From Escherichia phage EP02SG, in sequence record PQ301181: a stretch of 64,000 nt of DNA; one strand, given 5' to 3'. Each line of letters starts with the position of its first letter. Within the stretch, counting starts at the first letter, position 1. The notes beneath the pieces are model-generated. The model saw only the letters and a program-made list of their open reading frames with translations, did no database searches and was not told the DNA's origin. Position numbers and translations under genes: made by a program. Shown here piece by piece: positions 2,179 to 64,000 of this stretch.

Positions 2179-2487
2179 TTACATAAGAAGCAAACGTTCC
2201 ACCGGAGTACCATCAACCGAAATTACTTTATCAAGGCGGAAAGAACGCCACTGGCCTAACTTGGTATCGAATGCTCGAACTGATTCACGAGGTTCATAAC
2301 GAACTTCTGTTGCCGGATTGTTATTTTCATATTTGACTTCAAGTTCATCGCGCGAAGCAAACATAGTGCGTACCTCGCCGTTAGCCTTTTCAAATACAAC
2401 ACAATGAACGCCTACAGACAGAATAGTTTTAATACGTTCACGAAGAACCATAGTTTCTTGTTCAGTTAAAATCATATTATTCACCAC
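2179..2487 (-). CDS. hypothetical protein (31.1-like position)
   Basis: ORF track, 102 aa, compact spacing between gene 31 and cd. Confidence 0.55.
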   Translation of the reverse strand: MVNNMILTEQETMVLRERIKTILSVGVHCVVFEKANGEVRTMFASRDELEVKYENNNPATEVRYEPRESVRAFDTKLGQWRSFRLDKVISVDGTPVERLLLM

Positions 2488-3058
2488 AAAAGTTTCGGAT
2501 TTGTTCCCAATTCAGAGAACGAAGATTATTACGAGAGTACTGAATTACTTCAATACCGGCTTGTTTTAGAATGTCTGCCCAATTTTCAGGAGATCGATCG
2601 TATAATTCTGCGTATACAACCTTTTTAATACCTGACTGCGTAATAGCTTTAGTGCAATCAGGACATGGAGAAAGCGTAGTATATAACGTAGCACCTTCAA
2701 TAGAATTACCTTTACGAGCTGCAAACAAAATTGCATTCAATTCTGCATGGATTTCATTATTAGCAGACCATGCACTATGAGCGGCCCGATGTTCTTTAGC
2801 CAAAACAAAATTATCTGCCCGTCCAAATGCTGTAGTGCCTTCTTTATGTCCAGCAACGATGACCGGGCTTGGTTTATTCTTCAACCAACCATTTTCGGAT
2901 GCATGTTCACAGCAGTTAACGCCACCTGCGGGTGAGCCATTATATCCAGTAGAGATAATGCGTCCATCTTTTTCAATGACGGCACCAACTTTCCATGAAC
3001 AACATTTTGATTCTTGAGAAATCAAATAAGCAATTTGAAGATATGTGCTAGCTTTCAT
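2477..3058 (-). CDS. cd: dCMP deaminase
   Basis: 193 aa (same as T4 Cd); cytidine/dCMP deaminase zinc motifs HAELNAI and SPCPDC. Confidence 0.9.
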   Translation of the reverse strand: MKASTYLQIAYLISQESKCCSWKVGAVIEKDGRIISTGYNGSPAGGVNCCEHASENGWLKNKPSPVIVAGHKEGTTAFGRADNFVLAKEHRAAHSAWSANNEIHAELNAILFAARKGNSIEGATLYTTLSPCPDCTKAITQSGIKKVVYAELYDRSPENWADILKQAGIEVIQYSRNNLRSLNWEQIRNFCGE

Positions 3059-4050
3059 TATTGAACCTTATTAATATAAGTTAACAGCTCTTTAGTTTGT
3101 TCCCAACTGATGCACGCATCGGTAACGGAAACGCCATAGGACATATTATCAGAAATTTTTTGATTTCCTTCATGTAGGAATGATTCTATCATAATTCCTT
3201 TGACTAAATCATTAGCTGCTAAATTTTTACCAATACCAATTTGATTGCTATAATACCCATCAGCGTTTGCATGGCTACAGTCAACCATTACATAATGATT
3301 CAGACCTAATGCACTTGCTTTGTTAGAAGCTTCTTGAATATCAGAAGAATGATAGTTCGGGCCGTTAGTCCCGCCACGCAATACGATATGCGTATTCTGA
3401 TTACCTTCAGCTTCAACAATGCCTACAGTACCATCGACGTCCATACCCATATACCGATGAGGCCAGGCGGCACTATACATCGCGTCTGTAGCTACTTTAA
3501 TAGAACCATTGGTTGCGTTCTTGAAGCCTACGCACATCGGTAGACCTGAAGCAATTTCACGATGTGTCTGACTTTCAGTCGTACGGGCGCCAATAGCAAC
3601 CCATGAGAAAATACCAGAAAGATACTTAATCGTGAATGGGTCTAATACTTCAGTTGCTAATGGAAGTCCCATACGTAGAAGTTTACGACACAATGTTCGT
3701 GCAACTATAAGACCGTGGTTCATATCAAAACTTCCGTCAAGATATGGATCATTTACAAGACCTTTCCAACCTACGGTAGTTCGAGGCTTTTCAAAATAAA
3801 CGCGCATCACTAACAGAACATTAGGAAGACGAGTTTGAAGTTCAGCCAGACGTTTGCCGTATTCAACAGCAGCAATAGGGTCATGAATTGAACAAGGACC
3901 TACAACAATAAGTTTGCGTGGGTCTTCACCGTTCATAATCGAATTAACTTGTTCGCGATGAGAAGCCACTTGTGATGCGTAAGCTTCCGACAAAGGAATA
4001 ATCTCAGCCAGTTCTTTTGGAGAAATAAGTTTTCTGATGACAGGTAACAT
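3058..4050 (-). CDS. 3-deoxy-D-arabino-heptulosonate-7-phosphate (DAHP) synthase, class I (AroG/AroF/AroH-like)
   Basis: 330 aa; long colinear matches to recalled E. coli AroG: GPCSIHDP, MRVYFEKPRTTVGWKGLVNDP, GARTTESQ, HIVLRGG, DCSHANA, ESFLHEGNQ; stop overlaps cd start. Confidence 0.85.
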   Translation of the reverse strand: MLPVIRKLISPKELAEIIPLSEAYASQVASHREQVNSIMNGEDPRKLIVVGPCSIHDPIAAVEYGKRLAELQTRLPNVLLVMRVYFEKPRTTVGWKGLVNDPYLDGSFDMNHGLIVARTLCRKLLRMGLPLATEVLDPFTIKYLSGIFSWVAIGARTTESQTHREIASGLPMCVGFKNATNGSIKVATDAMYSAAWPHRYMGMDVDGTVGIVEAEGNQNTHIVLRGGTNGPNYHSSDIQEASNKASALGLNHYVMVDCSHANADGYYSNQIGIGKNLAANDLVKGIMIESFLHEGNQKISDNMSYGVSVTDACISWEQTKELLTYINKVQ

Positions 4051-14266: not shown

Positions 14267-15127
14267 TTATACCGCCATTTTAGCTTTGATAGCTGGATGT
14301 GATTCGTAATTTTTAAGAACGAAATCAGAATGTGTCATCGTTCCAGTAACCCAGTCCATTTGGATTTTTGTAGGCCAATTCTCAAAATTACTAGGCCAAT
14401 TAATTTCAAGAGAACATAACTCTTTAGGTTCACGACGAAGAACTTCTTTGCATTGTTCTACATGATTGCTGTAGATATGCGTGTTGCCGCCTGAGAACAC
14501 TAAATCACCTGGGATAAGGTTACACATCTTCGCTACAATATGCGTCAAGGCAGCGTACGAGGCAATGTTGAACGGCAGACCCAAGAAAACATCTACACTG
14601 CGTTGATACCATTGTAAATCAAGATGTCCATTACGCACGTTAAATTGATAGAACATATGACAAGGAGGAAGAGCCATTTGGTCAATTTCAGCCGGGTTCC
14701 ATGCAGAAACTATTTGACGACGATCATTAGGAAGAGCTTTAATACGGTCGATAGTTTTGACCAATTGGTCTACACCGCCGAAATCACGCCATTGCTTACC
14801 ATAAATAGGACCAAGTTCGCCGCTATGATATCCAAGGTCTTTTGCCTGATTTTCATAGTTGTCGTCCCAAATAGTTTTACCTTGAATAAGACTACCATGA
14901 GTACGAATACGCAAATCATTAACATTGGTAGAACCAGACATGAACCACAGTAACTCGGCAATACAAGCTTTCCATGCTAATTTCTTAGTTGTTACCGCAG
15001 GGAATCCTTTAGTCAGATCCCATCGCAATTTAGTTCCGAACAGGGCAATAGTGCCTGTACCTGTACGGTCGTCTGTTTCGTAGCCATTTTCTAAGATATC
15101 TTTAATCAGGTATTGGTATTGTTTCAT
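14267..15127 (-). CDS. td: thymidylate synthase
   Basis: 286 aa continuous (no intron); active-site LPPCHMFYQF. Confidence 0.95.
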   Translation of the reverse strand: MKQYQYLIKDILENGYETDDRTGTGTIALFGTKLRWDLTKGFPAVTTKKLAWKACIAELLWFMSGSTNVNDLRIRTHGSLIQGKTIWDDNYENQAKDLGYHSGELGPIYGKQWRDFGGVDQLVKTIDRIKALPNDRRQIVSAWNPAEIDQMALPPCHMFYQFNVRNGHLDLQWYQRSVDVFLGLPFNIASYAALTHIVAKMCNLIPGDLVFSGGNTHIYSNHVEQCKEVLRREPKELCSLEINWPSNFENWPTKIQMDWVTGTMTHSDFVLKNYESHPAIKAKMAV

Positions 15128-40749: not shown

Positions 40750-41850
40750 TTACGCTGTGAAGATTTTATCCCACATCGCAACAACCGCATCTCGGTTATA
40801 CTTCTTCCATACTGCTTCAGCACGTTTAACTCGAGCTTCGTATGTGTCAGTGAATTCTAATACCGCTTTTGTGTAAAGCGCAACTACTTCTTTCTTAGGA
40901 GTAGAGGAATCAATTTCTACACGCACAGTATCCGGGTCATATTCGAATGTCGCGTGCGGATAATCCTTAAAAACTAACTGAATCACAGGGACACCTTTAG
41001 AGATGGCTTCAATAGAACTATTCTCTACCGTACCCGTGTCAGGACACGTATTGATAAGTGCTTTAGCTGTTTTAAGACGTTCCATGATTTCACTGTGTGG
41101 AGCATCAATAATAACAGGATACTTAGCCGGTGGTGCCCATTTACTAGGACAGTATCCTACACCATTTTCGCCTAGTGCTTTAATCGCTTCAAGAGCAACA
41201 TCAGTACGACGCATTTTAGTGTCATAACGTTGTGCACTAATAATCAGATCAGTCGCCGGAAGAACTTCAGGTTTCTCATTCAAACAAATAACCGGATAAT
41301 CTTCGGCTTCAAACAACGGATTTGCTCGCCAATAATCGTAATCAATTTTGTCAGTCAGACCTGAAGTCATATAACAATATTTGCGTTCAAATTCACGGAA
41401 GGCTTTAGTAGGAGCATAACTCTTACCACCATTCTTATGAATTTGAATAGTCTGGTCCCAAATTTGAACAATGCCACGAGATACCGGTTCAAATGGTGTT
41501 GCCATAAAATTCTTATGAACTTTAGAGAGACCTGCGTCTTTAATTGCCTGAACGGTTAGTTTAGTCGGTTCCATAGTAACAACAAAATCGTATTCATGGA
41601 TGCCGGCTAGTTCAACAATCTTACGAGCCATAGTATAACTCATACCTAGACTGAATTTAGTCAGATGACCAACAGGATGGTGTGTAACTTTCCAGTCACC
41701 AAACGTGTCATTATCAAAGCCGATATAATCAATATCAGCACCGATGGACACAAGATATTTCAACACATTTAAATGTACTGCTTCAAGGCCACCTTGTACG
41801 CGGTCAGGATTAAATGGGACTGCACGAGATGGGATAAACATAACTTTCAT
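40750..41850 (-). CDS. putative glycosyltransferase (GT-B fold), candidate DNA sugar transferase
   Basis: 366 aa; N-terminal MKVMFIPSR...GGLE and C-terminal GT-B-like segment (ISAQRYD..RRTDVALEAIKAL; GTVENSSIEAISKGVPVI); between rIIA.1 and gene 39. Confidence 0.55.
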   Translation of the reverse strand: MKVMFIPSRAVPFNPDRVQGGLEAVHLNVLKYLVSIGADIDYIGFDNDTFGDWKVTHHPVGHLTKFSLGMSYTMARKIVELAGIHEYDFVVTMEPTKLTVQAIKDAGLSKVHKNFMATPFEPVSRGIVQIWDQTIQIHKNGGKSYAPTKAFREFERKYCYMTSGLTDKIDYDYWRANPLFEAEDYPVICLNEKPEVLPATDLIISAQRYDTKMRRTDVALEAIKALGENGVGYCPSKWAPPAKYPVIIDAPHSEIMERLKTAKALINTCPDTGTVENSSIEAISKGVPVIQLVFKDYPHATFEYDPDTVRVEIDSSTPKKEVVALYTKAVLEFTDTYEARVKRAEAVWKKYNRDAVVAMWDKIFTA

Positions 41851-46091: not shown

Positions 46092-46547
46092 TTAAGCTTT
46101 ACGAGGAGACACATAGCGAGTGATTTCAGATTCTTTAACAACTCGGAAGTCACCTAAGAATACGATATTGTATAACTTTTCACCATCTTCAACCCATTGG
46201 TCACTGATGAAGCCGCACATAATATCAGTTTTGTTTGGATAACCATATTCGTCGATGAAATCAAATTCTTTATCAGTCCGGAATTCAACGCCTTTGCAAA
46301 GGGCCCATTTGAACTGTACATTAGGTTCAGTAGAAGCAAAATGAGCGCTCACATGAGTTTCCAAGAATTTAGGACTTACGTAAGCGTACTGAGTTTCAGT
46401 TTTTCCAGAACTAGGAATGATTCGAACTTTAACTTCTTTAACACGTCCAGTACCATTAGTACGAAGTCCTACCACTTCAACTAGACGACCTGCAGCTTTA
46501 GAACGAGATGCAGACGATACACGCTTAATTTCACCAATAGTAATCAT
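46092..46547 (-). CDS. hypothetical protein, tandem paralog family member B (151 aa)
   Basis: See paralog A; own promoter-like element 46579-46609. Confidence 0.6.
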   Translation of the reverse strand: MITIGEIKRVSSASRSKAAGRLVEVVGLRTNGTGRVKEVKVRIIPSSGKTETQYAYVSPKFLETHVSAHFASTEPNVQFKWALCKGVEFRTDKEFDFIDEYGYPNKTDIMCGFISDQWVEDGEKLYNIVFLGDFRVVKESEITRYVSPRKA

Positions 46548-46611: not shown

Positions 46612-47106
46612 TTAATTAAGGATATTAACCACAGCACTACGTGGAACTACACTAAAATCACCTGCATGAACAACGTTCAGAAGTTCAACACCGTCTTCAA
46701 TCCACTGATCAGTTACCCATCCATTTACTGGACCTGCGAACGGACGTCGAATTGAAACATATTTACACAACAAATCAGTAGGCTCAATAGGCTTAATCAG
46801 AGTACCGTACATACAAGCGATATCCATATCAATACAGATATCTTTAACGGGTTCTACTTCTTTAATCAACAGTTCAAAGTCGGTGCTTGGAAGGGCGGTA
46901 GTAGAAATTGTACCATATGAATTTTTAATTTCTAAGAATAACCAAGGGCCTTCAACTTGTTTGATGAAGTTAACAATAGTGAAACTATTACCTTGAGTGG
47001 CACCTAAAATTTCACAAAACTTTTCATAAGCTCGCACTGAAGCACCATACCAGTTGATTTGTTTTTCATCTTTCAGGATGTAAGTAGCCGTTGTATTGAT
47101 ATTCAT
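46612..47106 (-). CDS. hypothetical protein, tandem paralog family member C (about 164 aa)
   Basis: C-terminal W.TDQWIEDGVELLNVVHAGDFSVV matches paralogs A/B; start trimmed to ATG 47104-47106. Confidence 0.55.
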   Translation of the reverse strand: MNINTTATYILKDEKQINWYGASVRAYEKFCEILGATQGNSFTIVNFIKQVEGPWLFLEIKNSYGTISTTALPSTDFELLIKEVEPVKDICIDMDIACMYGTLIKPIEPTDLLCKYVSIRRPFAGPVNGWVTDQWIEDGVELLNVVHAGDFSVVPRSAVVNILN

Positions 47107-47171
47107 AATGTTTTCCTGTTTGGTTAAGATAGAAAGATTATACTCCAACCATCCTTGGTTGTAAACTGGTT

Positions 47172-53122: not shown

Positions 53123-53644
53123 TTAGTAACCTCGGTCTTGGCGGGAGAAGTTTTCAGCATTCTTCAAGTAATACAGTTTAAAGATTTCTTCAGCGGAAAG
53201 TCCCAGACCTTGGAACATATTCAGAACAAAGTGGAGGATATCAATCATCTCGAATTTAATTTCAAGCTGGTCTTCAGGAGACAGTTCATCGATACGACGA
53301 TTTCGATATTCAGCATGTTGTGCTTTCCATGGCTTCCATACAGAGCTAGCGGCTTTTTCACCATTGCTCATACCACCAAGTGAAGTCAGCAGTTCACGGA
53401 ATTCATCATCAATATAATCTTTCTGATTACGCAGCCAATCAACAACATCGCCAGCAGTGGCTAATTCATCAGGATGTTTGTTATGTTCAGGCTTGTCATT
53501 TGCCAGACGAACCTGTAAAGATTTCTGCATATCAAGCATTACCTGCAGAGGGTCTTTATCTTCGTGAATCAGGGCATTAAAATAAGCTTCTTCTGCTTTA
53601 TCAACACCAGAAATAAGTTGTGAACATTCGTTAAAGTGCGCCAT
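53123..53644 (-). CDS. 56: dCTPase-dUTPase gp56
   Basis: Strong match to recalled T4 gp56 from MAHFNEC...; start at internal ATG rather than track start 53659. Confidence 0.9.
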   Translation of the reverse strand: MAHFNECSQLISGVDKAEEAYFNALIHEDKDPLQVMLDMQKSLQVRLANDKPEHNKHPDELATAGDVVDWLRNQKDYIDDEFRELLTSLGGMSNGEKAASSVWKPWKAQHAEYRNRRIDELSPEDQLEIKFEMIDILHFVLNMFQGLGLSAEEIFKLYYLKNAENFSRQDRGY

Positions 53645-53734
53645 TATTTTTCCTTTCAATTCAGTATAAGAGAAGTTAATTCTAACATTAATTTTATAAA
53701 GCGTAATAAATAATAAGGTAACTAAGGAGATATT

Positions 53735-55676: not shown

Positions 55677-56336
55677 TTAACCTCGATTCATAAATGCATT
55701 AAATATTTGGTCATCAACAGAAATTTCTAATTTGACTTCAATTGCTTCAGCCTTTTCTTCAGGTGGTAATTCGTATCCACACACTACAATTTTTTCATCG
55801 ATATCAAAATATACAGAAGCAATATGATTAATGTTATTTTCAGTTAAGTCTAAATCAACATCAACATCTTTTTGACCTACACTTAAAGGATAACTAATAC
55901 GGGTTATTTTATTATCTTTAACAAAGAGTCCACCGACATACTCTGTACTACGTTTGAAGTTTACACGTTTCCGAAATGAAAGATATGATGCATCTTTACC
56001 GTGAGCTCGGCTCATAGGACATAATGAATAGCTAGAATAAGAGATGTCAAATCCTACACCTTCAATATGAGCCAACGCGTCGTGATTAAACCAATTATAA
56101 TCATATGCCAAATCCATTATATTGTAATATGTGAAAGGCACCGGATTAACATCATACGTTGTACCTTTAAAATCTGCCCAGGCAACGATTTCGTTATCTT
56201 TAACAATTACAAAAATTACACCAATATGGTATCCGTTATTATTTTCATTCGGCGTTATATTATAACATTGTGCATTAGGAAATTTACCATATTTAAATGG
56301 CGCATTTTTGTGCATATAATAAATCATATTATTCAC
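55677..56336 (-). CDS. hypothetical protein (219 aa)
   Basis: ORF track; 61.x accessory region. Confidence 0.55.
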   Translation of the reverse strand: MNNMIYYMHKNAPFKYGKFPNAQCYNITPNENNNGYHIGVIFVIVKDNEIVAWADFKGTTYDVNPVPFTYYNIMDLAYDYNWFNHDALAHIEGVGFDISYSSYSLCPMSRAHGKDASYLSFRKRVNFKRSTEYVGGLFVKDNKITRISYPLSVGQKDVDVDLDLTENNINHIASVYFDIDEKIVVCGYELPPEEKAEAIEVKLEISVDDQIFNAFMNRG

Positions 56337-59478: not shown

Positions 59479-59841
59479 TTAAAAGAATTTAAATTTTTTC
59501 TTGGTCCGTTCATTAAAAGCTTGTTGTACTTGCATTGTAACACATTTTTCAACATGTGGTGCAAGTTCTGCTTTTCTGTCCTGGTCAAGAACTGCAAAGT
59601 CCATTACGATTTTACCATCAACCCAGTCTAGTTTTGTAATATAGACTATATGATGAGAACCATCTTCAAGTGTAATCAGAATCTCTTGAATGACATTTTC
59701 CATTGCTGAACGGATAATTTTAAGAGATTCATTAAACACTCGTTCTTTGCGAATGTCTTCCCCTTCCGAAGAAGGGGATTCATCAACGATTTCTAGATTT
59801 AAATCATCGAGATTATTCATCGAAATCTTCCATTTCGTCAA
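59479..59841 (-). CDS. 40: hypothetical protein at gene 40 position
   Basis: 120 aa (T4 gp40 114); positional call only. Confidence 0.45.
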   Translation of the reverse strand: MTKWKISMNNLDDLNLEIVDESPSSEGEDIRKERVFNESLKIIRSAMENVIQEILITLEDGSHHIVYITKLDWVDGKIVMDFAVLDQDRKAELAPHVEKCVTMQVQQAFNERTKKKFKFF

Positions 59842-60985
59842 GGTCGTTTTCTATATCTGCTGCAGACGGAGCATCAGAAGTTTTAACCGGAACTTTAGTT
59901 GTTGCTTTGCAATTAATAAGGTCGTTAACAGCGTCATCAACTTCTTTAATAGAAGAGATAGCACCTAGTTTATATTTAGTTTCAATTGCATCTCGGAAAG
60001 GTTTGTGTTTAAACAAAGGTCCCCAGAATTCTACACAATCAGTAGCTTTAGCACGCCACGATTTCTCTTCACGAATCATTTCGCCTGTTTCTTCGTCAAG
60101 GAATTCACGAGCATACCAACCGGCTTTAGGCTTAACCACAAAACCGATTTCAGTTGCCATTTCTAACAAGCCACTGAATGGGTCAATACCACCATCGAAA
60201 TTAACCGTGATTGGGAAAGTAGATTTCTCTTTAACTGTACGAGATTTTTCTGCTTTCAACGTGAAGTCATAACCGGTCAATTCTGTACCTTCTTTAACCT
60301 GACGTTTAGAGATAAAAAATACCGTGTTGGCAGAATAAAGAATACCTGTACCACCGCCCATAATCTCTTTAGGATACAATCCACCAATTTCCATTGCGGT
60401 ATGGTTAATTGCAACACACGGAATATCTTTAATAGTCAGATAAGGAGTCACAATACGGAAAAGAGATTTAAGTGCCTTAGCACGAGACATATCACCTACA
60501 ACTTTCTCGTTCAACGCATCTTCGGTTTCTTTCTTAGATGCAGTATTACCGATTGAATCGATAAAGATAATAACTTTATCACCGCGTTCAATCGCGTCAA
60601 GCTGATTAGTCATATCAACTTTAAGTTGTTCGACGGACTGAATTGGCGTATGAACTACACGGTCTAAATCAACACCCATTGAACGAAAATAAGATTCTGA
60701 AGCACCGAATTCTGAGTCATAAAACAAACAGATTGCATCTTTATATTTCTTCATATATGCTGCAACCATAGTTAGTCCAAACAACGTTTTAAAGTGTTTA
60801 GAAGGAGCAGCAAAAATAGTTAAGCCTGATTGCAACCCTGCATTCAGTGCACCACCTAATGCAATATTCAACATCGGAATACGAGTAGGGACTTCATCAC
60901 GATTATTAAACAGCTTAGACTTAGTCAAGTCTGCAGTCATTTTAGAAGTAGAAGCTTTAATCAGACGAGATTTTAAATCAGACAT
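59813..60985 (-). CDS. uvsX: UvsX recombinase (RecA/Rad51 family)
   Basis: 390 aa; N-terminus MSDLKSRLIKASTSK identical to recalled T4 UvsX; Walker A region. Confidence 0.95.
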   Translation of the reverse strand: MSDLKSRLIKASTSKMTADLTKSKLFNNRDEVPTRIPMLNIALGGALNAGLQSGLTIFAAPSKHFKTLFGLTMVAAYMKKYKDAICLFYDSEFGASESYFRSMGVDLDRVVHTPIQSVEQLKVDMTNQLDAIERGDKVIIFIDSIGNTASKKETEDALNEKVVGDMSRAKALKSLFRIVTPYLTIKDIPCVAINHTAMEIGGLYPKEIMGGGTGILYSANTVFFISKRQVKEGTELTGYDFTLKAEKSRTVKEKSTFPITVNFDGGIDPFSGLLEMATEIGFVVKPKAGWYAREFLDEETGEMIREEKSWRAKATDCVEFWGPLFKHKPFRDAIETKYKLGAISSIKEVDDAVNDLINCKATTKVPVKTSDAPSAADIENDLDEMEDFDE

Positions 60986-61085
60986 TGTATTTTTCCATAG
61001 GCATCATTATATTTTACTCATGTTTAAAAGATAAGACGATTATATACTAAGGGTTATACAGCATTTAAAAACTTTAAACAGGCTC

Positions 61086-61634
61086 TTAACGAGCCCATTT
61101 GATAATTTCTGTAATCAAATAATTACGTTCGCTTGCATTAAATCCTATAACTTTGTTAGCACCGTCATGATTAAGTAATTGATACGTTTGGATTTTGTTA
61201 TGAATTGCAAACTCTTCAAAATATGAAATGACTGTATTAAAACCGAATGAAGACAAAGTAATAAGGTCGTCTTCAAAACTTTCAGTCATTTCGTTACGTG
61301 TTAAAATAATTGTGAACACATCATGGTTTTGGCAAAGACGAACATAATCCTGTTCATAAACATCAAGAACCGAGTCCGCATCTTGTCGAATACGTCCATA
61401 AACCCAGTTACTAATATATCCACGGTCTAACAGATAAATCTTAGTAGGGTCTAAATAATTCAACATCGTTTCGAAACAACCAACTTCATTTCGAGACTTA
61501 ACATCGAAACGTCCATCAACTGTTCGTTTAGGGAAATCAATCTTTACATATCTTTCACTAATTTCCATTATGTCATTAATGAAAGTTGTTTTACCAGCAT
61601 TATCCGGGCCATCTACTAAAATAATTTTAGCCAT
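61086..61634 (-). CDS. P-loop kinase-like protein (182 aa)
   Basis: N-terminal Walker A ILVDGPDNAGKTTF resembling the kinase domain of this phage's own Pnk ([15 protein letters not shown]); lies in the T4 beta-gt slot. Confidence 0.55.
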   Translation of the reverse strand: MAKIILVDGPDNAGKTTFINDIMEISERYVKIDFPKRTVDGRFDVKSRNEVGCFETMLNYLDPTKIYLLDRGYISNWVYGRIRQDADSVLDVYEQDYVRLCQNHDVFTIILTRNEMTESFEDDLITLSSFGFNTVISYFEEFAIHNKIQTYQLLNHDGANKVIGFNASERNYLITEIIKWAR

Positions 61635-61635
61635 T

Positions 61636-62535
61636 TTATTCCTCGATTACGACATCTTCATATTTAGGTATATTATACGGCGAAGAAATTAAAGCATTAA
61701 AGTAGATGAACTCGCCAAGACCTGGATGGAATACTTCTTCAGGATTTTCGAAATATTGAATCTTCGGACGTCCTTTAAGAATTTGATAGTACTCAGTTTT
61801 AGTTGGATTAAAAATTCGAATCAGCGCTTCTTCAGGATACTTATTTCTGTCGAAACTATTATTTGGATCAGTTATATAAAGCGGTTGACCTAATTGAATT
61901 GCGCATTCAACCACTTGTTCAAAACGATAGCATGGGTCACTAATTCGAAATGGATGAAAAATACCATCTAGATGAATAGGAGCCAAATCACCTACAAGAC
62001 GCTGCATGACGGAAGGACGTATAACTTTCTGTGTTACGATAATCTTATTACCATCTGCACCTGCGTTAACCAGCACTTCTTTTTGACGTTCATTCAACAC
62101 AGTAGTTTGAAGTGAACGATTAACAGACAACATGTCGGTTTTTAAGAATTCATCAATATAAAAACGTGGTTTATTAGGGTCTGCAGTGATATTGAAATTG
62201 AATTCTACGTCAAAAGCGCCATCATATCCAGTGATATCTGTGATTAGAAAATCACAATCATAATAAGCAATTAATGAATCAACCACAAATTCATTTTCAG
62301 ACCAGAAATATTTACGAGTGTTATACGCGTTATCTTTATACCATAATGGAACAAACTTAAATTCCGGAAAAAGACGTTCGCATTCTTTAATATCAGATGC
62401 ATTACGTGGATATGTAATCACATCACCTGGATTAGCACGGTGCAAATGAAGTTGGAAGTTGCCATCCTTAAGGATAGCATACTGACCAGTTTCATAAGAC
62501 CGCATACTCAAGATAGGTACACGGAAAATAGCCAT
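61636..62535 (-). CDS. hypothetical protein (299 aa), unassigned, in beta-gt slot
   Basis: ORF track; abuts kinase-like ORF and gp42-like ORF; no recognisable glycosyltransferase motifs. Confidence 0.5.
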   Translation of the reverse strand: MAIFRVPILSMRSYETGQYAILKDGNFQLHLHRANPGDVITYPRNASDIKECERLFPEFKFVPLWYKDNAYNTRKYFWSENEFVVDSLIAYYDCDFLITDITGYDGAFDVEFNFNITADPNKPRFYIDEFLKTDMLSVNRSLQTTVLNERQKEVLVNAGADGNKIIVTQKVIRPSVMQRLVGDLAPIHLDGIFHPFRISDPCYRFEQVVECAIQLGQPLYITDPNNSFDRNKYPEEALIRIFNPTKTEYYQILKGRPKIQYFENPEEVFHPGLGEFIYFNALISSPYNIPKYEDVVIEE

Positions 62536-63251
62536 TAGTCAAGGAATCCTTTAACATAATCAAAATCACGTTCAAACACATGGGCACTTACCATGGTATG
62601 AGTATAATCACCAACTTCTACACCACATTCATTAGCGATATAATGAAGTAATTTTCCTTGGAGATAAAAATCCAACTGCATAACAACAGCACAGTTCTGA
62701 GAACGCATATGACAGTGGGTATAAAGCTTACCATCACGAATATAATAAGTCACTGAGTCAGTACATGGATATTCAAGTGTTTCGTCCGAATCAAGCAAAG
62801 CCTGATCTGAACTTTCTAGAATTTGGAACACAACTCTTCGGGAGTTAGGCTTCTCTTTAAGTTCTTTTAGAAGAGCTGGTAATTGGGCCGCAATGCGAGG
62901 ACCATAGAAAGTGTTGAAGTTCGCCGGCAAAACATCTGATTTTGGTTTAGAAATAAATTTAGCGACATTAGGATATGCCTTAAACGCTTCTTCTGCGTTG
63001 GTACCACCAGAAATCATAAACTTCCAGAAGTCTTCGGCATATTCATAAGAGATGCGGTTAATACGTGGGTCGGTCATTTTGAATGATGATGGAGTGTCAA
63101 CAACTACTGTCATAGACCCAATTTCATTACAACGTCCAATACGAGAATCAGTTACGAATTCCGGGTTTTCTAAAATTTCACGATTGACTGCTTTAAATGC
63201 GGTTTGAAAATCTGCGGCTTTAATATATTTCATTGTGTTATGTTTTCCCAT
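62535..63251 (-). CDS. 42: thymidylate-synthase-fold pyrimidine hydroxymethylase (gp42/dCMP hydroxymethylase-like, divergent)
   Basis: 238 aa; catalytic core PCTDSVTYYIRDGK and SRR loop align with recalled T4 gp42 (MCTNTVQYLIRDKK; SRRG); rest of protein diverges; same position as T4 gene 42. Confidence 0.65.
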   Translation of the reverse strand: MGKHNTMKYIKAADFQTAFKAVNREILENPEFVTDSRIGRCNEIGSMTVVVDTPSSFKMTDPRINRISYEYAEDFWKFMISGGTNAEEAFKAYPNVAKFISKPKSDVLPANFNTFYGPRIAAQLPALLKELKEKPNSRRVVFQILESSDQALLDSDETLEYPCTDSVTYYIRDGKLYTHCHMRSQNCAVVMQLDFYLQGKLLHYIANECGVEVGDYTHTMVSAHVFERDFDYVKGFLD

Positions 63252-63371
63252 GTTTACCTCAATACAGTTATTATATACTCAATTCATAAAGCTTATTTGA
63301 ATTTCTTAGCGATGTTGATATAACGTAAAGCTTCAGCATCGATATTTCCAAGAACACTATGAAGAAATGCA

Positions 63372-63533
63372 TCAGCGTAGTATTCTAGTTGAACAGGTTT
63401 CTTTAATCACTTTAGCCGCTTTAGTTTCAAACAGGCCCATAAGGGCCTTTTTAAGAATTTGTTCGTTGCTGTTAATTTTAATAGTCAAAATCTCTTCGTT
63501 AAGTTGGTGGTTAAAAGTTTTTCTAGAAATCAT
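63372..63533 (-). CDS. small protein (53 aa), hand-translated
   Basis: Start ATG overlaps stop of upstream partial ORF in an ATGA arrangement; internal AGGCCC-ATAA-GGGCCT hairpin. Confidence 0.4.
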   Translation of the reverse strand: MISRKTFNHQLNEEILTIKINSNEQILKKALMGLFETKAAKVIKETCSTRILR

Positions 63534-64000
63534 TCTGGGTACCTCAAAGCGTCATCAGAGTTAGTTATATCAATAATAGATATAGAGTTTTCTGATAACC
63601 CATTTTTAGATAACTGACGTTTATAATATCTTTCACAATATGTACACGTCGTCCCACAGATTTCATTAGCACAATCGAAATCTGGATGTTTGAACCACCT
63701 TTTTTCTAAAAAGCCGTCTAACAAAGAGGTTTCAATATTTACCGTATGTGAAAACTCAGTCTCATTTTCAAGAGTGAAAATGGTCTCTAAAGGCTTCCAC
63801 AATTCCAACAAATTACCTTCAAACTTTTCAGAAGCGTAAGCTTCAAGAACTTTTAAAATGTAGTCGGTGCTACCTGTACGTCCTGAAACTTTAAATTGAG
63901 TGATACCAATATCATTATAAAGTTTCAAATCTTGAGGACGAACAAAACGAGTTCTCAACCAGTTAAATGGATCTGTATCACGAGCTTTAATACAGTGTTG
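63530..64000 (-). CDS. partial CDS (C-terminal at least 156 aa), Cys-cluster protein; 5' end beyond window
   Basis: Frame open to window edge; track 'start' is TTG; C-terminal C-x4-C-x3-C-x2-C cluster (DCANEICGTTCTYC). Confidence 0.55.
   Translation of the reverse strand, partial: QHCIKARDTDPFNWLRTRFVRPQDLKLYNDIGITQFKVSGRTGSTDYILKVLEAYASEKFEGNLLELWKPLETIFTLENETEFSHTVNIETSLLDGFLEKRWFKHPDFDCANEICGTTCTYCERYYKRQLSKNGLSENSISIIDITNSDDALRYPE

Follow-up and report, generated by a model that had tools for sequence, protein, structure and literature searches.

Three adjacent genes beside uvsX in Escherichia phage EP02SG very probably form the core module of the arabinosyl-5-hydroxycytosine DNA modification pathway of RB69-like coliphages. 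The DNA analysed, here called the window, is a 64,000-nucleotide stretch of sequence record PQ301181, and all of the chemistry ascribed to EP02SG is carried over from orthologues that are 98-99% identical. The pathway has been described before (Thomas 2018, Mahler 2025, Lee 2026, He 2026). A first-pass annotation of the window had suggested that it might be undescribed, which the work published from 2018 to 2026 contradicts, but its proposal of a non-glucose, arabinosyl-type hypermodification of cytosine matches the RB69 and HY126 orthologues. A sequence-only reading can, in this instance, pick out a cytosine-modification module that is not of the T4 type.

Gene order and source of the locus

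The first-pass annotation had placed minus-strand ORFs of 182, 299 and 238 aa at this locus, and all three were recovered with the same lengths and positions (Table 1). They lie directly upstream of uvsX. The stop codon of the 238-aa ORF overlaps the start codon of the 299-aa ORF (TAATG), and a single base lies between the 299-aa stop and the start of the 182-aa ORF. In tblastn searches, matching phage records numbered 343 for the kinase, 348 for the 299-aa protein and 476 for the thymidylate synthase (TS)-like protein, the last count taking in distant thymidylate-synthase relatives. Because this conservation extends over more than 340 phage genomes, the ORFs are judged to be genuine genes and not chance ORFs.

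Table 1. Features of the window considered here, in order of position
Feature	Position	Strand	Remarks
AroFGH-type DAHP synthase	3058-4050		
Predicted second GT-B glycosyltransferase, 366 aa, RB69 gp3 orthologue	40750-41850	minus	Between rIIA and topoisomerase gene
gp56-type dCTPase/dUTPase	53123-53659	minus	Pfam PF08761 dUTPase_2, 1.7e-6; adjoins gene 61 primase
uvsX	59813-60985		
Intrinsic-terminator-like hairpin	61076-61100	minus	10-pair stem then T-run; overlaps kinase stop codon
Thymidylate-kinase-like gene, 182 aa	61086-61634	minus	Contains ILVDGPDNAGKTTF
Predicted GT-B glycosyltransferase gene, 299 aa	61636-62535	minus	
Middle-promoter-like motif GCTT-N14-TATAAT	61672-61695	minus	Inside 3' end of GT gene, before kinase gene; consensus match only
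Putative 5hodCMP synthase gene, 238 aa	62535-63251	minus	Contains EYPCTDSV
T4 middle-promoter-like motif GCTT-N13-TATAAT	63270-63292	minus	Before 238-aa gene; consensus match only
Small ORF, 53 aa	63372-63533	minus	In gap between U32 gene and synthase gene
U32-family protein, RB69 gp50 orthologue	63530-64000	minus	C-terminal 156 codons of a 386-aa protein, cut by window end

Sequence comparison assigns the EP02SG stretch to an RB69-like coliphage of the genus Mosigvirus. A megablast search gave 98.5% DNA identity over 3.1 kb to Mosigvirus JS09, and in 151 records the matches spanned 80% or more of the query. The three proteins share 98-99% identity with RB69 ORF045c-048c (gp45, gp46:47 and gp48) and with their HY126 counterparts, and the gene order at both loci is collinear with the window. 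The contiguity of the three genes is also kept across genera, in JS98, Thanatos-2 and PWKp16. At the same place T4 carries uvsX-segA-b-gt-42-imm, and the earlier comparison of this interval with the T4 β-glucosyltransferase slot was a fair one. The context genes cd, alc, td and a gp56-type dCTPase, to which the first-pass annotation had pointed, are present in the window.

Phage SA79RD is annotated with middle promoters at the sites corresponding to both promoter-like motifs in Table 1, and with a terminator at the place matching the hairpin. A scan for sigma-70 promoters was uninformative, returning 12 sites where 12.2 were expected. The 53-aa ORF is a truncated counterpart of RB69 ORF049c and SA79RD_044 (79 aa), cut short by a +1 frameshift from an additional A.

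The 238-aa protein as a 5-hydroxy-dCMP synthase

By homology, the 238-aa protein is a flavin- and O2-dependent 5-hydroxy-dCMP (5hodCMP) synthase and the orthologue of RB69 gp48, because it carries the D169N signature and is 99.2% and 97.9% identical to the RB69 (ORF048c) and HY126 enzymes, respectively. It matched Pfam PF00303 with 56.9 bits (cut-off 24.3; E 2.3e-15) and, in a PDB sequence search, the solved HY126 structure (9iqc/9ir2/9iqu, E 8e-161). The catalytic Cys (E. coli Cys146) is kept, as had been stated originally, with EYPCTD in the window aligned to LAPCH in E. coli. The substitutions L143E, D169N and N177D (E. coli numbering) are all present; around positions 169 and 177 the alignment reads RSQN...LD in the window, RSCD...FN in E. 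coli and RSND...ND in T4 gp42. Asp169 is retained in T4 gp42 and in the window's own td. D169N, which occurs together with N177D and L143D/E, is diagnostic of 5hodCMP synthases (PMC13326640). Both RB69 gp48 and the HY126 enzyme are reported to form 5hodCMP with O2 and flavin, and for RB69 gp48 5hodC was found in vivo, 18O was incorporated from O2 and FMN was bound (PMC13326640).

The first-pass annotation had taken 5-hydroxymethylcytosine (hmC) as the precursor base. In such a T4-like system, a divergent gp42 would make hmdCMP and an unknown transferase would add a non-glucose group. The TS fold, the catalytic Cys, N177D and an acidic residue at 143 are indeed common to the window enzyme and T4 gp42, and RB69 was originally reported as arabinosyl-hmC (PMC6024577). 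We nevertheless regard an hmC system as extremely improbable. The equivalent of Asp169 is Asn, the published 5hodCMP-synthase marker, where T4 gp42 keeps Asp; the nearly identical RB69 gp48 is a 5hodC maker with oxygen from O2; and the hmC assignment of RB69 is now called erroneous (PMC13390438). Identity to T4 gp42 is only 25% on alignment, bearing out the strong divergence remarked on earlier, and a dCMP hydroxymethylase of the T4 gp42 type was rejected for the 238-aa enzyme on this figure and on the Asn for Asp169. The precursor base is instead taken to be 5-hydroxycytosine.

The 299-aa protein as a GT-B glycosyltransferase

The structure predicted for the 299-aa protein has a GT-B fold with two Rossmann-like domains, and on this model the protein is a compact GT-B (GT4-like) glycosyltransferase (GT), the orthologue of RB69 gp46:47. 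There were no matches in Pfam, NCBIfam or PDB sequence searches, the GT-B fold being visible from the predicted structure only. The earlier statements that this interval holds no GT-B-like ORF, and that the 299-aa ORF is without recognisable motifs, are overturned by the model. The absence of a T4-type β-glucosyltransferase from the slot was correctly noted, as BLASTP of the 299-aa protein found no similarity to T4 β-GT (E 3.6) or to the window's second GT. The gene is intact here and split into ORF046c and ORF047c in the RB69 record, with identities of 97.8% and 99.1% to the two fragments. It adjoins the synthase gene in RB69, HY126, JS98, Thanatos-2 and PWKp16. The protein is predicted to be the first (base-proximal, α) arabinofuranosyltransferase acting on 5-hydroxycytosine.

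TH1_063, the Thanatos homologue of the 299-aa protein (~48% identical and also beside the synthase), is reported to form UDP-xylose in vitro when given UTP and xylose-1-P (PMC12838424). The 299-aa protein could by analogy be a UDP-pentose pyrophosphorylase making the sugar donor, with another enzyme performing the first transfer to the base. This appears quite unlikely, as the fold is GT-B and not that of a nucleotidyltransferase, and the acceptors tried by Brandt et al. were without a 5-hydroxyl group (PMC12838424). The gene cluster also contains a dedicated NTP-transferase/kinase fusion (Pfam NTP_transferase), which is the reported UDP-Araf synthase in HY126 (PMC13326640). In addition, the 299-aa family is found beside 5hodCMP synthases in hexose-using Rhizobium phages, which fits base recognition and not sugar activation. 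A glycosyltransferase acting on 5-hydroxycytosine is therefore the preferred assignment.

The 182-aa protein as a nucleotide kinase

The 182-aa protein is a P-loop nucleotide kinase of the thymidylate-kinase fold and the orthologue of RB69 gp45 (98.4% identical to ORF045c), matching phrog_761 'thymidylate kinase' at 6e-45. Across 24 kinase homologues, G9, D11, N12, G14-K15-T16, F34-P35-K36 and D70-R71 are invariant, and G72 and Y73 are near-invariant (DRGY), so that the P-loop GxDNxGKT is followed by FPK and DR motifs. The motif in human TMPK is FPER, and we take the FPK and DR motifs of the 182-aa family to correspond to the FPx(R) and DR(Y/H) motifs of the human and yeast TMPKs. When the AlphaFold2 model (pLDDT 88) was searched against the PDB with Foldseek, thymidylate kinases came top and TMPK and dCK/dNK chains were dominant (best E 1e-6, TM 0.5-0.63), while a PDB sequence search returned P-loop noise only (RecA, thioredoxin). 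Nothing in these family and fold matches supports a DNA kinase like 5-HMUDK. The first-pass observation that the 182-aa protein resembles the phage's own Pnk held for the Walker A segment, but the likeness is that of a generic P-loop only (9/23 identities, E 0.009).

The presence of a P-loop kinase beside a transferase and a TS-fold enzyme had invited an architectural analogy with 5-hmdU DNA kinases, in which the kinase would phosphorylate the modified base in DNA and the transferase would displace the phosphate. This is hardly plausible for EP02SG. Mononucleotide kinases are the closest matches by family (phrog_761) and by fold (thymidylate kinases in Foldseek), and the FPK and DR motifs are present. 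In the product, the oxygen that bridges base and sugar is the O2-derived one of the 5-OH group, which fits direct glycosyl transfer and not phosphate displacement; phosphate activation is disfavoured because the ether oxygen has this origin.

Most likely, the substrate of the 182-aa kinase is a C5-substituted pyrimidine dNMP, either 5hodCMP or its arabinosylated form. The RB69 gp45-type protein is labelled 'nucleotide kinase' and nothing narrower in PMC13326640. Because RB69 gp159 already phosphorylates 5hodCMP (PMC13326640), the 182-aa kinase is dispensable in the published scheme.

An alternative version of the main model would place the first arabinose on the mononucleotide (dCMP to 5hodCMP to Ara-5hodCMP to Ara-5hodCDP), and the 182-aa kinase would be needed since the gp1-type kinase cannot take the bulky substrate. 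In several families the synthase, GT and kinase genes adjoin one another and show translational coupling, and kinase and GT co-occur almost one to one (343 and 348 records, with the same genus profile). Single GTs supplied with UDP-Ara and 5hoC-DNA were inactive, and the authors left undecided whether it is the nucleotide or the DNA that receives the first sugar (PMC13326640). The 299-aa family is also acidic (median pI 5.1), which is weak evidence; T4 β-GT has a pI of 9.05, but that of the DNA-acting T4 α-GT is 6.1, and pI was rejected as a non-discriminating proxy for DNA-acting versus small-molecule GTs. Against the variant, T-even glycosylation is post-replicative, incorporation would demand a polymerase that takes a glycosylated dNTP, and the DLP3 GTs act on DNA for the third sugar (PMC13326640). 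We consider transfer at the nucleotide level rather unlikely.

Proposed pathway

In the proposed scheme, the phage dCTPase would first supply dCMP. The role of gp56-type dCTPases in removing dCTP and supplying dCMP is established T-even biology and is listed in Table 1 of PMC13326640. The 238-aa TS-fold enzyme would then hydroxylate C5 of dCMP to give 5hodCMP using flavin and O2, not methylene-folate, as shown for near-identical orthologues. Conversion of 5hodCMP to the triphosphate would fall to the host NDP kinase and to a gp1-type dNMP kinase whose gene lies outside the window, and the phage polymerase would put the product in place of C; this stage has been shown in part for RB69. The 299-aa GT-B protein is predicted to use UDP-Araf as donor and to place the first arabinofuranose on the 5-hydroxyl, which would give an ether-linked glycoside. 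UDP-Araf would be made by an arabinose-5-P isomerase, a bifunctional kinase/uridylyltransferase and a HAD phosphatase, the genes for which should lie just past the window end, judging from collinear genomes. The 182-aa kinase would contribute by phosphorylating a C5-substituted pyrimidine dNMP.

A second arabinose, β-linked, is predicted to be attached by the 366-aa GT, a role put forward in PMC13326640. This protein matched the 'phage HY126 glycosyltransferase' in the PDB (9iqz/9ir0, E 4.7e-251) and phrog_8302 (1e-222). Both mono- and di-arabinosyl-5-hydroxy-dC are present in the virion DNA of the Mosigvirus phage NP (PMC13390438). To these phages, arabinosyl-5-hydroxycytosine gives protection against restriction enzymes, against the Brig1 glycosylase and against certain CRISPR systems, and it leaves them open to attack by type IV enzymes, BrxU among them.

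The neighbouring U32-family gene

The U32-family gene at the window end is part of the same cluster as the three modification genes. Its fragment matched phrog_5757 (2e-89, profile positions 246-387) and is 99.4% identical to the C-terminus of the SA79RD protein, and the full-length orthologue matched Pfam PF01136 (Peptidase_U32) with 42.2 bits (cut-off 22.4). The canonical four-Cys Fe-S motif CX6CX15CX3/4C is absent from the phage U32 protein, in which only the third Cys (C192) aligns and the loop with the first two is missing. Other Cys clusters are formed by C203, C209 and C233 and by CX4CX3CX2C at residues 339-351.

In sister genera, a chorismate mutase gene directly follows the U32 gene, between it and the 5hodCMP synthase gene. 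In the window this slot holds an unrelated, frameshifted ORF, and Pfam, BLASTP and hhalign (probability 0.03) gave no support for the RB69 ORF049c-type small ORF as a diverged chorismate mutase. Phage DAHP synthase and U32 co-occur with nearly the same genus profile, and a DAHP synthase gene is present in the window. The Acinetobacter phage records, that of DLP3 among them, gave no U32 match.

The U32 family includes the O2-independent hydroxylases RlhA, TrhP and UbiU/UbiV. In E. coli, RlhA is required for the very base change at issue, cytidine to 5-hydroxycytidine, in 23S rRNA, and parallels are provided by TrhO/TrhP for ho5U in tRNA and by UbiIHF/UbiUV for ubiquinone. We tentatively suggest, as a possible but doubtful reading, that U32 and DAHP synthase, with chorismate mutase in sister genera, could constitute a prephenate-dependent, O2-independent route by which cytosine is hydroxylated at C5. 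Such a branch would serve as a backup to the flavin/O2 enzyme during anaerobic growth of the host in the gut. No discussion of it was found in the accessible literature on the pathway. If a prephenate-dependent hydroxylase underlies the association of U32 with DAHP synthase and chorismate mutase, this would account for the replication of obligately cytosine-free phages in the absence of O2, and it would offer a small, tractable substrate for the poorly understood U32 hydroxylases.

Comparison with known systems

RB69 gp45/gp46:47/gp48 and the HY126 'Afh' genes share genus, gene order, active-site signature and folds with the window at the protein identity given above. There is essentially no difference, except that the GT gene of the window is unsplit and its ORF049c-type gene is frameshifted. 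The same RB69/HY126-type pathway is reportedly also treated by He et al. in Nat Chem Biol in 2026 and by Mahler et al. in 2025. It is the arabinosyl-5-hydroxycytosine pathway of Lee et al. NAR 2026 (PMC13326640).

T4 resembles the window in the uvsX-side neighbourhood, in a TS-fold enzyme that modifies dCMP before replication and shares Cys146, N177D and the acidic residue at 143, in a dCTPase that removes dCTP, and in GT-B enzymes that decorate the hydroxyl. However, T4 gene 42 performs folate-dependent hydroxymethylation with Asp169, whereas the window type performs O2/flavin hydroxylation with Asn169. The sugar also differs, as T4 has glucosyltransferases and the window type adds arabinofuranose in an ether directly at C5-O.

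The same three-gene module is found in DLP3 (gp78-gp80; Acinetobacter) and Thanatos (TH1_062-064; Shewanella), with identities to the window proteins of 40-46% for the kinase, 46-48% for the GT and 67-69% for the synthase. DLP3 has extra GTs leading to tri-arabinosyl-5hoC (PMC13326640). Thanatos DNA is mono-glycosylated, and U32 and chorismate mutase are located downstream of the kinase.

More distantly, the Rhizobium phages RL38J1 (gp214-216) and P9VFCI (P9VFCI_114-116), which contain hexosyl-5-hydroxycytosine, keep an analogous trio in the order synthase, GT-like ORF, small ORF. Their GT-like protein and the 299-aa protein have the N-terminal motifs SMRSYETG..Y.I..DGN and PFR..D..Y.FEQ.V in common (E 5e-8), but the first sugar is galactose, the synthase is ~32% identical and the third ORF resembles the window kinase at the P-loop only (E 0.004). 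RL38J1 gp214, which corresponds to this small ORF, is called a nucleotide kinase by Lee et al. (PMC13326640).

The 5-HMUDK systems of thymidine-hypermodifying phages likewise encode a TS-fold enzyme, a P-loop kinase and a transferase together. In the window, by contrast, the kinase matches mononucleotide (thymidylate) kinases in both fold and motifs, and activation and displacement of a phosphate would be unneeded because the hydroxyl oxygen stays in the product.

Organization of the locus

The three ORFs are tightly packed on the minus strand (table). The 238-aa and 299-aa genes overlap by their stop and start codons (TAATG), and between the 299-aa stop and the 182-aa start there is a single base. 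A middle-promoter-like motif that matches the consensus (GCTT-N13-TATAAT) was found ahead of the 238-aa gene, a second is located in the 3'-terminal part of the GT gene, and after the kinase gene there is a hairpin with a run of T. The same promoter-like motifs and hairpin elements are present in the annotation of phage SA79RD. The motifs cited in the first-pass annotation, ILVDGPDNAGKTTF and PCTDSV, were found in the ORFs, and its comparison of this slot with the uvsX-42 interval of T4 is apt, as the corresponding T4 interval is uvsX-segA-b-gt-42-imm. When bases 60900-64000 were examined by Megablast, identity with Escherichia phage JS09 was 98.5%, and query coverage of at least 80% was found in 151 phage records, all belonging to the RB69 group (genus Mosigvirus).

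Features of the modification locus and associated genes, in the window and in comparison loci (L-handles)
Feature	Coordinates	Strand	Remarks
AroFGH-type DAHP synthase	3058-4050	-	NCBIfam TIGR00034, 6e-128
Second GT-B glycosyltransferase	40750-41850	-	between rIIA and topoisomerase gene; E 4.7e-251 to PDB 9iqz/9ir0 "phage HY126 glycosyltransferase"
gp56-type dCTPase	53123-53659		in window
uvsX	59813-60985		directly downstream of the three-ORF cluster
182-aa ORF (kinase)	61086-61634	-	
299-aa ORF (GT)	61636-62535	-	
238-aa ORF (synthase)	62535-63251	-	
Small ORF between U32 and synthase	63372-63533	-	compare L001:8395-8634, L013:5503-5742, L003:8718-8840
U32-family protein, RB69 gp50 ortholog	63530-64000, continues past window end	-	C-terminal 156 codons of 386 aa
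U32 gene, full length	L001:8631-9791	-	
Chorismate mutase in sister genera	L008:5658-5903, L014:151-390, L016:34-378, L017:25-369, L006:7595-7852 and others		

The 238-aa protein is a predicted dCMP C5-hydroxylase

A Pfam search placed a thymidylate-synthase domain in the 238-aa protein (2.3e-15), yet identity to T4 gp42 is only 25%. The protein shares 99.2% identity with RB69 ORF048c and 97.9% with the HY126 protein, whose solved structures (PDB 9iqc, 9ir2 and 9iqu) it matches with an E value of 8e-161. In an alignment with E. coli ThyA and T4 gp42 the catalytic cysteine is kept, and positions 143, 169 and 177 are Glu, Asn and Asp, respectively. Asp169 is retained in T4 gp42, in E. coli ThyA and in the td product of the window itself (14267-15127), and D169N is diagnostic for "5hodCMP synthases" (PMC13326640). 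When RB69 gp48 was co-expressed with a phage dNMP kinase, 5-hydroxy-dC entered E. coli DNA; the protein carries FMN and the hydroxyl oxygen derives from 18O2 (Lee et al. NAR 2026, PMC13326640). The same paper credits the HY126 crystal structure with flavin to He et al. (Nat Chem Biol 2026).

The Asn169 signature and the data on the RB69 ortholog identify the 238-aa enzyme, as judged from its sequence, as a dCMP C5-hydroxylase and not a hydroxymethylase. The hmC precursor proposed in the first-pass annotation was not borne out, and the arabinosyl-hmC assignment made for RB69 by Thomas et al. 2018 was mistaken (PMC13326640, PMC13390438). Mosigvirus DNA contains mono- and di-arabinosyl-5-hydroxy-dC (PMC13390438). 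The alternative of an arabinosyl-type, non-glucose modification was correct.

The 299-aa protein is a predicted arabinosyltransferase

Searches of Pfam, NCBIfam and PDB sequences with the 299-aa protein produced no match, and phrog_3891 (function unknown) was the only sequence-library match. Neither T4 beta-GT nor the second GT of the window resembles it in sequence. However, an AlphaFold2 model built from an alignment of 57 sequences, drawn from 138 homologs, had a pLDDT of 95.2 and reproduced the 6kih match found in the list of Lee et al. for RB69 gp46:47, which they named "arabinosyltransferase 1" (PMC13326640). The claim that the slot holds no GT-B-like ORF was therefore wrong, and an arabinosyltransferase function is predicted. 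In a tblastn search the RB69 record matched the protein as two pieces (98.7%), the split first GT being ORF047c/046c (L013:6501-7401, the RB69 locus); the window and other Mosigviruses have a single 299-aa ORF. Lee et al. put the split down to sequencing error (PMC13326640), a view that the intact reading frame here supports.

Single GTs were inactive on 5hoC-DNA, and Lee et al. were unable to tell whether a nucleotide or DNA is the acceptor of the first arabinose (PMC13326640). By contrast, TH1_063 of Thanatos (compare L006:4995-5897 in Thanatos-2), a homolog at the same position with approximately 48% identity, was reported to convert UTP and xylose-1-P to UDP-xylose (Brandt et al., PMC12838424). 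The literature on this family is in conflict, with UDP-xylose pyrophosphorylase (Brandt et al.) set against first arabinosyltransferase (Lee et al.).

The 182-aa kinase and the rest of the pathway

The 182-aa protein matches phrog_761 "thymidylate kinase" (6e-45), and thymidylate kinases ranked first when its model (pLDDT 88) was searched with Foldseek (E 1e-6, TM 0.5-0.63). Among 24 homologs the P-loop, FPK and DR are invariant, and the G and Y that follow DR nearly so (DRGY). These family and fold matches lend no support to the analogy drawn earlier with 5-HMUDK, and the likeness to the Pnk of this phage extends no further than the Walker A segment. RB69 gp45 is described just as a "nucleotide kinase" by Lee et al. 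and has no step in their pathway scheme (PMC13326640), since 5hodCMP is already phosphorylated by gp159, a gp1-type kinase. Co-occurrence of the kinase and the GT is near perfect (343 and 348 phage records, respectively, with matching genus profiles).

The second GT is essentially identical to the protein in PDB 9iqz/9ir0 and its ORF is intact, hence di-arabinosylation is expected. It is probably the counterpart of 'Aat', the gene that Mahler et al. deleted in Bas46. Collinear genomes place the UDP-arabinose genes, encoding a HAD phosphatase, an NTP-transferase/kinase fusion and a SIS-domain isomerase, just past the window end and therefore outside the reach of a reading of the window alone.

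Elsewhere in the window, a minus-strand gene (55677-56336) strongly matches the Pfam family of the phage counter-defence protein AdfA, anti-DarT factor A (2e-121). On the same strand, two paralogs of the MotB family (modifier of transcription) lie side by side at 46092-46547 and 46612-47148; the match is strong for one of them (4e-38) and partial for the other (7e-9).

The U32 gene and the chorismate mutase of sister genera

The gene directly upstream of the 5hodCMP synthase encodes a U32-family protein labelled "sugar or heterocycle reductase" by Lee et al., in whose text "prephenate" and "chorismate" are absent (PMC13326640). Hydroxylation that depends on prephenate but not on O2 is the chemistry linked with characterised U32 proteins: 5-hydroxycytidine in 23S rRNA requires RlhA, ho5U in tRNA requires TrhP, and ubiquinone requires UbiU/UbiV (PMC5727448, PMC6599085, PMC10990095). 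The phage protein may be tied to the same chemistry, a possibility that we raise tentatively and regard as somewhat doubtful.

Phage U32 was found in 221 phage records with at least 82% identity, even in Shewanella phage Thanatos-2, and its conservation is far above that of neighbouring genes. None of these 221 records was from an Acinetobacter phage, and Acinetobacter is a strictly aerobic genus. DAHP synthase, with which the shikimate/prephenate pathway begins, is also encoded in the window, the 3' end of its gene overlapping the start of the dCMP deaminase gene (2477-3058) by one base. It was found in 212 phage records, with a genus profile nearly that of U32. Among the genomes examined, those of Marfavirus, Kanagawavirus, Winklervirus, Kagamiyamavirus and Thanatos have a type II chorismate mutase of roughly 80-115 aa directly after U32. 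In these five as well as Tegunavirus, Gualtarvirus and phage 92A1 the mutase directly precedes the 5hodCMP synthase, its stop codon overlapping the synthase start. U32 is directly before the mutase in most sister-genus loci, and the mutase, translationally coupled to the synthase, is also coupled to U32 in PWKp16, PEi20, X20 and EcS1. The mutase scored 39.5 bits against Pfam CM_2 (cut-off 27) and has invariant residues R10, R27, K38, E51, S73 and Q77, which we take to correspond to the catalytic set of E. coli CM.

Together with the O2 requirement of the flavin 5hodCMP synthase (PMC13326640), the conservation and distribution of U32, the adjoining mutase and the co-occurring DAHP synthase would connect phage U32 to prephenate-dependent hydroxylation. 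Against this, phage U32 keeps just one of the four Fe-S cysteines of the canonical motif, though other Cys clusters, including a C-terminal CX4CX3CX2C, are present. In Mosigvirus an unrelated small ORF, frameshifted here, takes the place of the mutase, and U32 is missing from the single Dhakavirus cluster examined, that of the E. coli phage JS98.

The small ORF was considered as a chorismate mutase and rejected (hhalign probability 0.03). Its length is 79 aa in both SA79RD and RB69 (ORF049c) and 53 aa in the window, where one extra A (AAAGAAACC versus AAAG-AACC) causes a frameshift; the HY126 version has two insertions. The frameshift may mark a genuine pseudogene, or it may reflect a run prone to slippage or an error in sequencing.

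Comparison with other phages

The synthase, GT and kinase genes are contiguous in JS98 (in the order kinase-synthase-GT), Thanatos-2 and PWKp16. The JS98 module (L012:7995-10116) consists of HAD phosphatase, kinase, synthase and GT genes with 4-nt overlaps throughout, and includes neither U32 nor a chorismate mutase. Identity is only 38% for its kinase and 77% for its synthase, making the kinase the fastest-evolving member. An analogous trio was found in Rhizobium phage P9VFCI, in which the relationship of the GT-like protein can still be recognised (E 5e-8) and the third ORF resembles the 182-aa kinase at the P-loop only. The locus in the window is collinear with the HY126 and RB69 loci, and the arabinosyl-5-hydroxycytosine system predicted here is already described in the literature.
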